In this document: positions 12,552 through 18,346 of the stretch, piece by piece | Layout of the letters: each line of letters opens with the position of its first letter | Position numbering within the stretch: the first letter of the stretch is position 1 | Virus record (IMG/VR): IMGVR_UViG_3300031992_000031 | Location: 32,001 to 96,000 of that record | Direction: 5' to 3' (one strand) | From: a virus | Lineage: Duplodnaviria > Caudoviricetes | Length of the DNA: 64,000 bases | Program-made: the position numbers and the translations under genes | Notes under the pieces: generated by a model | Databases searched by the model: none | What the model was told of the DNA's origin: nothing | The model's input: only the letters and a program-made list of their open reading frames with translations

Positions 12552-12689
12552 TAATTTGACAAAATTTCAAATTTATATTATAATTATATTGTAAAAAGGA
12601 GATAAGATATACATAAAGGGCAATTTGATAAAATTTGTTGCAAAAAATTAAGAAGTAAAATCTCCTTTCTCGCGGCGCAAGCCGCATAT

Positions 12690-12763
12690 CTGGGTGTAGC
12701 GCAGTTTGGTAGCGTACTAGATTTGGGATCTAGGGGTCGAGAGTTCAAATCTCTCCACCCAGA
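12690..12763 (+). tRNA. tRNA-Pro(TGG)
   Basis: Anticodon arm CTAGA TTTGGGA TCTAG. Confidence 0.92.
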
Positions 12764-12767
12764 CTTA

Positions 12768-12825
12768 TAGGCCATTACAGCAAACTTTGTAGAAATAGGA
12801 AATAATACAACAAACAATGGCCTAG
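12768..12825 (+). ncRNA. CAGCAA-hairpin small RNA candidate, copy 3
   Basis: Stem TAGGCCATT/AATGGCCTA, then ACAGCAA. Confidence 0.5.
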
Positions 12826-12945
12826 CTTTATGAATATTTGCTCCATCTTGGGGCTAATAGATTGCCGCGTTAGGAACCTTATGGTGGAAGAGCCTTATTT
12901 GAAAGAGGTAGAGTAGTATCTACAACTCTTCCGCGGCGTTTTATT

Positions 12946-13098
12946 TTTAGAACTGTAGGCTTAGAAGCAGCCATCAGCTAAAGAGTTTTCGTTTCTCCAT
13001 TCGTGCGAAATGTATTATGGGCTTACGATTATACGCCCCATAAGTATGATGTGCGATAGATAATAGAAAATGAAATTTGGCGTAATAGCACATCTAAA
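12946..13098 (+). ncRNA. 23S rRNA L11-binding domain (H43-H44) mimic with ~90-nt insertion
   Basis: TGTAGGCTTAGAAGCAGCCATCA..TAAAGAGT and GCGTAATAGC match 23S nt ~1058-1100; closed by TTTAGA/TCTAAA. Confidence 0.75.
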
Positions 13099-13100
13099 AT

Positions 13101-13188
13101 GACACTATGGCCGAGTTGGTAAGGCGCTAACCTGCTAAGTTAAGGCCACTTGTAAAAGGGTGCCGAGGTTCGAATCCTCGTAGTGTCG
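13101..13188 (+). tRNA. tRNA-Ser(GCT)
   Basis: Loop CTGCTAA, long variable arm, G73. Confidence 0.9.
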
Positions 13189-13191
13189 CTT

Positions 13192-13296
13192 TGCGGTGGT
13201 GGAATAGGTAGACATTTGGGGCATGACACACGTAAAGAGGTATGCGAGGGCGTGAAGTCTGGGTGTGTCCTGTGAGGTGCAAATCCTCACCCGCAT
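13192..13296 (+). ncRNA. tRNA-Leu-like RNA lacking a canonical anticodon arm
   Basis: D-arm GTGGAATAGGTAGAC; T-arm GTGAGG TGCAAAT CCTCAC; central long arm GACACAC/GTGTGTC. Confidence 0.6.
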
Positions 13297-13300
13297 TTAT

Positions 13301-13457
13301 AGTCCCTTAGCGTAATGGTAGCGCAACGGACTTGTATGGGTCGTCTAGGTTGGAAGGCCGGCTCGGTGTATTAGAATACACAGATGAGAAGAAGTGAGTT
13401 CGATCCTCACCCCATGCATTGACTCCGTATGTGTTGGTCCGATTCCAACAGGGACTG
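13301..13457 (+). tRNA. tRNA-Gln(TTG) interrupted by an 86-nt tRNA-like insert (13333-13418) in the anticodon loop
   Basis: Acceptor AGTCCCT/AGGGACT; anticodon stem ACGGA/TCCGT; removing the insert gives CT-TTG-AC. Confidence 0.85.
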
Positions 13458-13496
13458 CTTTGAAACAATCTTATTTATTAAAGCTTAGGAGGAATT

Positions 13497-14114
13497 ATGT
13501 TAAATATTCTTAGTGTAGATATGGATTGGATTATGGAACCAAGTATTAATTTTTATAATAATCAAGTTTCTGATTAGAATGATTTTTTAGCTGAAAATGA
13601 TGAAAGAATTATTATACCTGCCGATTTAAAAAAATATGCCATGATTACTAAATTAATTTTTTCTTTATTGTCATCTTTACAATTAAAAGATATATTTATA
13701 GCAGAGGGGCATGAAGAAATATTTAAAGCTATTAATAAATGGCAGCTAAATGATAAGTTTAAAATTTATAATATAGATCATCATCATGATTGCGGTTATT
13801 TATATGATAATATATCATTACATAATCTAATTAATGAATGTACTTGCGCTAATTGGGTTCCATATGTTTATAAAAAATTTTCAACATTTGTAAAATACAT
13901 ATGGATTGGAAATAAAAATTCATTCCCATTAGATTCACAACTTAAATCCATTCTTCCAGATTACAATATTTATGATAATCTTGAAATATTAGATAATATA
14001 AAAATAGATAAAATTTTTATTTGCAAATCTCGTACTTGGATCCCAGTTGAATATCGTGAATTAATTGATAGTTTTACATATTCTATTATAAAAGCATTGG
14101 AAATGAGAAAGTAA
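13497..14114 (+). CDS. UPF0489/arginase-fold-like protein (one TAG=Gln)
   Basis: ATG after AGGAGG; ILSVDMDW, NIDHHHD; in frame with track ORF 13641. Confidence 0.65.
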
Positions 14115-16696: not shown

Positions 16697-16843
16697 CTTA
16701 AAATAAAATTTCTGGTATAATTATTATGAAAGATGAAACAGTATGGGATTATTCTGATTGCCAAATCGGACACCCATGTATAAATTGTATAAAAGAATGT
16801 ACCTTCCGACTTGACAAAGTTGTAGATGAAAAGGAGAAAAAAG

Positions 16844-18346
16844 ATGAACGAATTACTGAAAAATCTGAAAAAAGAATCTAATTACCGTTATACTGAAAAT
16901 GGCGCTCTTACTCATAAGACCACCTTTAATAAGGTGCTTGATATGTTTGGTATGGGTGGCGCGATGCGTAATCGCTCTGAGGATGACATTATTACAATGT
17001 TTAAGGGCGCTTATGAAGAAGAGCCCACGTTGGCTCTTCGCTGTTTGTTCTACCTGCGGGACGTGCGTGGAGGTCAAGGAGAACGGCGCTTCTTCCGTAT
17101 CATCCTCCATTGGATGGGCAACTATATGACTGATGAGGTTGAACACCTTATTCCTATGATTAGTGAATATGGCCGCTGGGATGATCTCTTTGAACTCTTC
17201 GGCACTAAGTGTGAGCCTGCGATGCTTGGATATATTCACTATACCATCTCTAAGAACGAAGACCATCTTATTTATAAATGGCTTCCTTCTATCAACGCCT
17301 CCTCTCGCACTACTAAATCTCGTGGTCGCAAGATTGCCACCGAATTTAATATAACTGAACGCGAGTATCGTAAGATGTTGACTGAAGGCCGCAAGGCTTG
17401 TAATCTGGTCGAATCTCTGATGAGTCAGAATCATTGGGATCAGATTGCCTTTGATAAGTTGCCTTCCCGCGCGGGCCTTCTGTATAAGAGAGCATTTATG
17501 CGCCGTGAGGAAACTAAGGCACGGTATGCCGATTTTATGAGCAATGAAAAGACCAAGGTCAATGCTTCGGTACTTAACCCTGTAGAAATTGCTCATCAGA
17601 TCTTCAACTATAACAGTTGGAATCGTCCGAGCGATACCGAGCGCAGCGCTTGGCAGAAATACTGGGACAACTTGAAGGACTATTATAATGGCCGTGAAGA
17701 ACCCGGTATTGCTGTCGTAGATGTTAGTGGCAGTATGTATGGTCAGCCTATTGAAGCCGCAGTCTCCATGGGCGCATATATTGCCGAACGTGGTAAAGGC
17801 CCTTTCCAGAATCATTTCATTACGTTCAGCAGCAACCCTGAACTTGTAGAGTTTAGTGGTGTGGACGTGTATGATAAGTTTATGCGCGCGAGATCGGCTG
17901 AATGGGGCGGAAGCACTAATATCGAAGCCGTTTTCAATTTGCTTCTTGATACTGCTCGTCGGAATCATGTATCAAAAGAAGATATGCCCAAGACTCTTTA
18001 TATCTTCAGTGATATGGAGTTCAATGGATGTATCACTAGTGGGCCCGTATCTTACGATCGTTGGGCTTCTTCTGGCCGTCCTCTTAGTGAGTGTCAGATC
18101 AATACGGTCATTGAAGAACAGGCTCGTAAATGGCGGCAGTATGGTTATCAGATTCCTCGTGTGGTATTCTGGAATCTTGATGCTCGTCATGATAATATCC
18201 CTGCTATCGGAGATGGATTCTCCTATGTAAGTGGATTCTCCATGAACATGGTAGAATGTATTCTCTCTGGCAAAGATGGATATGACCTTTGTCTAGAAAA
18301 ACTGAATAGTGAACGCTATCAGCCAATCTCTAGTGCCCATAAATAA
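16844..18346 (+). CDS. DUF2828 / TROVE(Ro60)-like protein with vWA domain
   Basis: ENGA, RDVRGGQGER, GRWDDL, KWLPS, VVDVSGSM, FSDMEF, VFWNL. Confidence 0.8.
   Translation: MNELLKNLKKESNYRYTENGALTHKTTFNKVLDMFGMGGAMRNRSEDDIITMFKGAYEEEPTLALRCLFYLRDVRGGQGERRFFRIILHWMGNYMTDEVEHLIPMISEYGRWDDLFELFGTKCEPAMLGYIHYTISKNEDHLIYKWLPSINASSRTTKSRGRKIATEFNITEREYRKMLTEGRKACNLVESLMSQNHWDQIAFDKLPSRAGLLYKRAFMRREETKARYADFMSNEKTKVNASVLNPVEIAHQIFNYNSWNRPSDTERSAWQKYWDNLKDYYNGREEPGIAVVDVSGSMYGQPIEAAVSMGAYIAERGKGPFQNHFITFSSNPELVEFSGVDVYDKFMRARSAEWGGSTNIEAVFNLLLDTARRNHVSKEDMPKTLYIFSDMEFNGCITSGPVSYDRWASSGRPLSECQINTVIEEQARKWRQYGYQIPRVVFWNLDARHDNIPAIGDGFSYVSGFSMNMVECILSGKDGYDLCLEKLNSERYQPISSAHK

Follow-up and report, generated by a model that had tools for sequence, protein, structure and literature searches.

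Why would a phage carry, among its tRNA genes, a short stretch that resembles the uL11/GTPase-associated centre (GAC) of 23S rRNA, and is this stretch an RNA under selection or a captured piece of rRNA? The locus comes from a ruminant-gut phage represented by a 133-kb virus record that is 75% complete, of which a 64,000-nt stretch (the window) was analysed. It occupies window positions 12945-13099 (+) within a tRNA/tmRNA cluster, between tRNA-Pro and tRNA-Ser. The initial annotation had described 12946-13098 as a stand-alone mimic that reproduces the H43 and H44 loops, and the sequence is as described; the E. coli sequence quoted there is that of Salmonella 23S rRNA, and also that of the construct in PMC1802607 apart from the U1061A change of the latter.

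With E. coli numbering anchored at G1062 = window position 12958, the mimic corresponds to 23S 1051-1108, and the arm of about 90 nt that had been noted within H44 is a 93-nt insert (12987-13079) between 1090 and 1091 (Table 1). The compensatory change proposed for H43 is present as C1057-G1081 in place of A-U. The closing helix TTTAGA/TCTAAA is present too, though at 7 bp it has one pair more than first drawn. The H43 and H44 loops of this copy match rRNA almost perfectly, its own tips being rRNA-like; C1057-G1081 and C1082·A1086 are rare in true rRNA. Small defects are visible: the C1082·A1086 opposition, where the family mostly has U-A, C-G or A-U, and, in the arm, a C·A mismatch at a pair that is C-G in relatives. 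As the initial annotation had claimed, there is no other rRNA alongside: Rfam finds no flanking rRNA around the mimic, and its LSU match is confined to 25 nt at 12953-12977 (model 1098-1122; E 0.45, 11.6 bits versus a gathering score of 50). An LSU rRNA gene or fragment (RF02541) was rejected as an identity for the element, given no continuous LSU sequence beyond the GAC, and A1101 and the 93-nt insert versus U1101 in 89/89 true rRNAs. The pair U1090-A1101 is a hallmark of the phage family described below.

Table 1. Features of the element and its operon (window coordinates; 23S positions in E. coli numbering).
Feature	Position	Strand	23S equivalent or likeness	Remarks
Sigma-70-type promoter	12556..12584	+		TTGACA-17-TATAAT, 12/12 match; heads RNA operon
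tRNA-Pro(TGG)	12690..12764	+		Upstream, same operon as mimic
Whole non-coding RNA	12945..13099	+		About 155 nt; self-closed uL11/GTPase-associated centre mimic with inserted arm
Closing helix, 5' strand	12945..12951	+	1049-1055	7 bp; stands in for top of H42
H43 equivalent	12953..12977	+	1057-1081	C1057-G1081, U1060, A1061, loop 1066-1072
1082-1086 loop	12978..12982	+	1082-1086	C1082·A1086 in this copy
H44, 5' strand	12983..12986	+	G1087 A1088 G1089 U1090	U1090 pairs with A1101
Inserted arm	12987..13075	+		Stem P1, internal loop, short helix, A-rich bulge, ~10-bp helix, RAAAU/GAU internal loop, distal hairpin
Arm module 1, strand GUGC-GAAAU-G	13003..13012	+	Like 1119-1122 and 1127-1131	
Arm module 1, strand U-GAU-GUGC	13047..13064	+	Like 1031-1036 (H42 base)	With six more paired positions and an A-rich bulge
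UUUG linker	13076..13079	+		Conserved; leads from arm back into H44
H44 hairpin, A1101, C1102, A1103	13080..13092	+	Hairpin 1091-1100	
Closing helix, 3' strand	13093..13099	+	1104-1110	Pairs with 12945-12951
tRNA-Ser(GCT)	13101..13189	+		3' of mimic, one base apart

The operon is headed by a consensus promoter, and no terminator was found between the promoter and the mimic. Cleavage at the 5' end of tRNA-Ser would yield the 3' end of the mimic. Release by tRNA processing, as first suggested, thus explains the 3' end but not the 5' end, which lies 180 nt after tRNA-Pro; the spacing of 2 nt given for tRNA-Ser was an error, one base only (13100) separating the helix from the tRNA at 13101. The best sequencing runs with this stretch were two RNA libraries from one sheep-gut sample, whose contigs span 12600-13500, that is the RNA cluster, and mostly not the flanking ORFs. 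This coverage is a weak hint of transcription of the cluster, weak because DNA can be present, because the contigs give neither strand nor ends, and because one sample is involved. A depth peak of run X2 at 12901-13000 is probably host rRNA, and runs with a small word share were left out. The joint 12986>13080 that splicing of an intron or self-splicing insert in the GAC would leave did not appear in the contigs of four RNA runs, contigs being an assembly product that drops rare forms.

Other elements were recorded in the same region. A 9-bp terminal stem surrounds CAGCAA and an A-rich loop at 12768-12825. A tRNA-Leu-like RNA at 13190-13297 has D and T arms and an irregular arm that replaces the anticodon, and some contigs skip it exactly. 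The tRNA at 13301-13458 is split, its anticodon loop housing a further, tRNA-shaped element of 86 nt (13333-13418; Rfam tRNA E 0.032, fold z -2.45); RNA-run contigs that skip 13333-13418/13419 represent either relatives without the nested element or its excision. Rfam places a cow-rumen-3 RNA and a phage tmRNA at 4345-4440 and 8296-8620. Just downstream of the RNA cluster, 16826-18346 encodes a 506-aa RNA-binding protein (phrog_850, E 1e-117) that is probably Ro60/TROVE-like.

The element belongs to a large family. An exact scan of viral contigs with the H43 16-mer gave at least 118 loci, with nearly all of the matches listed being non-rRNA; in metagenome contigs the same 16-mer returned mostly true rRNA, which provided the control set of 89 true rRNAs. 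The family holds 180 distinct members and 53 more of a U-triple variant type, laid out alike as closing stem, H43, AA[AGU]GAGU, arm, UUUG, H44 hairpin, ACA and closing stem. The cultured phages GAP32, CBB, pf16, UNO-G1W1 and Aeromonas 4_4572 carry the full element, unannotated, and XacN1, Serratia BF and fHe-Yen9 match its 5' part. A same-strand tRNA lies within 500 nt at 54 of 134 loci and within 30 nt at 32 of 134, many loci being cut short. The genome_contigs set gave real elements in only 32 of its 107 H44-motif matches, many of them on MAG contigs that are possibly phage. Matches in Paenibacillus phage Pd_22F and in L706 were rejected as true LSU rRNA. Neither this element nor that of 11 relatives has a match in Rfam 15 at the gathering score, and no description of the family was found in searchable papers, a coverage with subscription journals outside it.

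Variant copies were also seen. Two records carry two copies each (L058, 5125-5700; L458, 4320 and 5362). L014:3710-3790 is an arm-less divergent copy. The reverse strand of L072 (~4360-4420) holds a stand-alone arm-less GAC with the rRNA-type U1101 and an outer TTTAGA/TCTAAA stem, lacking an rRNA match and located directly upstream of the ribosome-binding site of an ORF; this form is possibly a separate cis-acting element or recently captured.

The element is accessory. A contig from a related strain skips it with a precise joint (12946>13099), so the element comes and goes as a whole, and it is absent from most relatives. No recurring dedicated neighbour protein was found; only homing-endonuclease-like ORFs and clade genes recur. 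Neither uL11 nor a release factor was found encoded in this phage (G000, the 75% complete record). A cis-acting ribosomal protein leader was rejected on the grounds that tRNA-Ser follows the mimic, that none of 50 carriers has a uL11 gene, and that no downstream gene is consistent.

Folded as a single sequence, the mimic scores only slightly above shuffles (z -1.63), so the proof that its structure exceeds chance is comparative. Across 124 distinct cores the closing helix, the H43 base, the 1082-1086 pair and the first arm pairs covary. The pairs from 1051-1108 to 1055-1104 form in 83-100% of cores with MI of 0.7-1.3, and U1060 and A1088 are invariant (124/124). RNAalifold on 24 members of the same arm type recovered the model unaided, with double changes in 22 of 33 pairs; together with pair counts, this alignment is also the basis of the arm model. 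Pairing in the proposed structure reached 91.5% of cells; shuffles gave 76.5% and slid controls no more than 47%, measures that relatedness inflates.

Tertiary structure is under selection too. We scanned for the variant hairpin with U1092-A1099 while leaving position 1072 free. Position 1072 proved to covary with the 1092-1099 pair, which is the base triple known from the rRNA: C·C-G in 70/70 members and U·U-A in 47/48, 117/118 together, with arms of 26-355 nt. The covariation shows the predicted GAC tertiary fold to be held across any arm length. Besides the GAC secondary structure (terminal helix, H43 and H44), the mimic has the tertiary contacts U1060·A1088 and the triples at 1071 and 1072 with H44. 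It is therefore a real, tertiary-folded, free-standing GAC copy in a large phage RNA family, and the proposal of a stand-alone, structurally selected mimic is borne out by covarying helices and a base triple in homologues. A captured rRNA fragment in neutral decay would account for the H43/H44 identity to rRNA and for the absence from most relatives, but it is refuted by the covarying helices and triple, by U1090-A1101, and by one insertion site across hundreds of phages and many hosts. Base-triple covariation is not what a decaying fragment leaves, and the search for phage homologues, proposed as a check, returned no random decay; we give this explanation a negligible chance.

What, then, might the RNA bind? 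In the rRNA, the C-terminal domain of uL11 contacts 1058-1060, 1062-1065, 1075-1083 and 1088, and thiostrepton binds at A1067 and A1095 (PMC1802607). Across the family, pairing and the invariant bases are retained in the region of these uL11 contacts. The loop tips are less constant: among members detected by patterns not anchored on that loop, A1067 is kept in 58%, G1068 in 68% and A1070 in 81%, and A1096 stands at 83% in the family versus 100% in true rRNA. The closing helix, G1056 and U1082-A1086 are likewise free in the family, versus nearly fixed in the 89 true rRNAs. Position 1061 is commonly A or G in the family, versus 96% U in rRNA; the A found here is the base that stabilises the free domain in Mg2+ (PMC6239185, PMC1802607, PMC2719339). 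Kink-turn 42 is missing, its place being taken by a continuous Watson-Crick closing helix.

Since the fold and the uL11-contact positions are fixed while the factor-facing tips and closing helix vary, this conservation favours uL11 binding over a decoy role for GTPases or toxins. Judged from this pattern, the mimic quite likely binds host uL11, and its partner is probably neither uL10 nor a translational GTPase. The initial annotation had offered a decoy or sponge for uL11, for translation factors or for a ribosome-targeting toxin; of these the uL11 branch gains from the retained contacts of the C-terminal domain, and the factor and toxin branches are weakened by variation at A1067, G1068, A1070 and A1096. 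A uL10-binding stalk base was rejected, no kink-turn 42 lying below the terminal helix.

The RNA could instead be a decoy for something that attacks or docks at the GAC, be it an anti-phage nuclease, a modifying toxin, a translational GTPase, RelA or a thiopeptide. Its place in a tRNA/tmRNA cluster beside the gene of the Ro60-like RNA-binding protein would suit such a role, as would the near-perfect loops of this copy, but the bases that face factors and thiostrepton vary in the family. Nor are we aware of a defence nuclease that targets H43/H44 specifically. A docking site for translation factors made of the GAC and a sarcin-ricin loop was rejected on the drift at A1067 and on the arm, in which no sarcin-ricin copy is present here; the exact motif occurs in only 2 of 108 arm clusters and a relaxed one at chance level. 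A decoy role is accordingly unlikely in our judgement.

If uL11 is bound, it may also be withheld from ribosomes. The step from binding to a uL11 sink is tentative and falls a little short of an even chance, and we hold with the same reserve the best overall explanation, that an RNA of the tRNA operon captures host uL11 away from ribosomes. The RNA would be transcribed from the strong promoter within the tRNA operon and trimmed at its 3' end by tRNA-Ser processing. Its two ends would fold, as the covariation indicates, into the compact 58-nt uL11-binding domain of 23S rRNA, and the RNA would bind the C-terminal domain of uL11 through the conserved positions. uL11 drawn off host ribosomes would, from what is known of its biology, blunt (p)ppGpp stringent control and RF1-dependent termination, to both of which the protein is tied (PMC1802607). 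This phage, being TAG-recoded, would profit from weaker UAG termination as a side effect, which is not why the family exists. Expression of an L11-binding rRNA fragment in E. coli reportedly titrates L11 and leads to UAG readthrough (Van Dyke, Xu and Murgola 2002). The action of a sponge may be slow, since a lytic cycle is short and most uL11 is already ribosome-bound while it runs.

The phage at hand does recode. Coding cover is 0.51 under code 11 versus 0.88 with TAG read, and one gene of 2065 aa contains 56 TAG codons; the phage reads TAG as Gln, in late genes outside the window (L195, L197). A long-arm tRNA with anticodon CUA lies at G000:23445-23532 (L196:3445-3532). A 639-aa YcaO-family protein with 10 in-frame TAG codons is encoded at L196:3407-5326, its predicted frame overlapping the CUA tRNA gene. 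An amber tRNA and TAG reading would fit a titration of uL11 that weakens RF1 termination, and the RNA might thus be a dedicated helper that suppresses RF1 termination for readthrough of TAG-containing late genes. Recoding is shared by the closest relatives that have this arm, and L028 and L062 each have a CUA tRNA no more than 700 nt away from the element. Among 36 related phages compared through NrdD, 17 are TAG-recoded and a few (L237, L244, L253, L257 and G029) look TGA-read, but the mimic occurs in 4 of the 17 TAG-recoded phages versus 2 of the other 19, counts that come from broader patterns and leave out a G001 match without an H43 match. It is absent from 8 of 11 near-complete recoded genomes, and in each of the 20 carriers for which a terminase match exists, the terminase has no internal stop. 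Both codes occur among close carriers of the same arm, G065, G066 and G044 showing no TAG gain. The RNA is neither needed for recoding nor confined to it; the co-occurrence led us to reject an amber-recoding role as a requirement and leaves a dedicated helper very unlikely. An accessory benefit for recoding in this phage is possible.

A uL11 sink leaves one feature unexplained, namely the near-universal arm at one exact site with its recurrent modules. Arms range from 26 to about 370 nt, all inserted at the same position, where the P1 stem and the UUUG linker are conserved. The arm here is a long kinked hairpin. Module 1, at a fixed 19-22 nt from the arm start, consists of GUGC-RAAAU paired around GAU-GUGC, with about 10 bp and an A-rich bulge; it is present in 34 of 180 members and in 12 of 108 arm clusters, where shuffles gave 0.075. 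Module 2 (CACCCC-loop-GGUAAGG) is found in 19 of 108 arm clusters, versus 0.375 in shuffles, and ends 15 nt before 1091; it occurs in the arms of L015, L096, L123, L169 and others and has no good match in the 23S profile. We propose that the arm is a variable accessory domain, here equipped with a module like the base of H42.

Such an arm could be the working part of the RNA, with the GAC core recruiting uL11 as a handle that protects the RNA, stabilises its folding and seals its two ends, much as the stem of Y RNA binds Ro60 and carries an effector domain. The single insertion site, the conserved P1 and UUUG, and the fixed spacing of modules 1 and 2 are what such an arrangement would predict. 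No motif is common to all arms, however, the smallest are plain hairpins of 26-45 nt, and stand-alone arm-less copies exist (L014, L072). We regard this explanation as somewhat unlikely.

Module 1 itself offers a lead. Against the 23S profile, GAUGUG scored best at 1031-1036 (0.40, next 0.10), UGCG at 1119-1122 was among the top three, and AAAUGUA was best at 1127-1133. All three pieces map to the base of the GAC-bearing helix H42, in a matching pairing register, and about 10 bp separate module 1 from the bulge, as in H42. The apparent likeness is a lead only, because it was noticed after the fact and only a fifth of members have the module. Scans with gapped module 1 patterns beyond the mimic returned too many chance matches to be informative. 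Module 1 was rejected on inspection as a canonical kink-turn, the bulge lying on the wrong side of the GA pairs. If the likeness holds, the uL11-bound RNA might sit on the 50S subunit as an extra or replacement stalk base. Against this, few members have the module, the arm leaves H44 and not the H42 stem, and its bulge lacks the conserved bases 1043-1050/1109-1112 of kink-turn 42; docking of this kind is more improbable still than a dedicated recoding helper. A fuller picture combines these elements with capture of uL11: RNA copies of the stalk base would take uL11 and retune ribosomes towards a relaxed stringent response and leaky UAG reading, here aiding late-gene readthrough, and the imitation of the H42 base by the arm would recruit a further ribosomal component. 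As a whole, this picture is doubtful.

Should uL11 be bound, phages would have a means, made of RNA alone, of changing the composition of host ribosomes, stringent control and the way stop codons are read. The cultured carriers, some of them with hosts that are easy to work with in the laboratory (Pseudomonas pf16 and UNO-G1W1), make the family testable now, and its hundreds of natural variants are a ready mutational map of a classic RNA fold free of ribosomal constraints.

The closest known system is the 23S GAC itself (E. coli 1051-1108, comprising the top of H42, H43 and H44; part of RF02541; PMC1802607, PMC6239185, PMC2719339), whose helices are the same in the mimic. Both share U1060·A1088, G1071, C1072·(C1092-G1099), A1084, A1085 and A1103, and the 58-nt rRNA domain is known to fold alone and bind uL11. 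Unlike the rRNA, the mimic is a free-standing phage gene with its own closing helix, U1090-A1101 in place of U1101, an arm and UUUG between 1090 and 1091, and relaxed loop tips, lacking kink-turn 42 and any other rRNA. Ribosomal protein mRNA leaders also mimic rRNA sites, as in the L1 site of rplK-rplA, the L10 leader and the L20 leader, and so share the imitation by RNA of a protein-binding site in rRNA. These leaders regulate their own operon in cis and imitate a minimal motif, whereas the mimic reproduces an entire tertiary domain and is encoded as a gene of its own within tRNA arrays. GOLLD, ROOL, the T4 species I/II RNAs and theta ribozymes are large or stable phage non-coding RNAs in tRNA clusters, and resemble the mimic as structured RNAs of a phage tRNA region that are probably released by tRNA processing; to our knowledge none of them is a copy of an rRNA domain. 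We are not aware of any natural trans-acting RNA modelled on an entire rRNA tertiary domain, and none was found in Rfam 15 or in searchable papers. The working model put forward here has its counterpart in the engineered L11-binding fragment, a free GAC that reportedly titrates uL11 in E. coli and alters stop-codon-specific termination; that fragment is a laboratory construct with no arm, whereas the mimic is a natural gene that has one.
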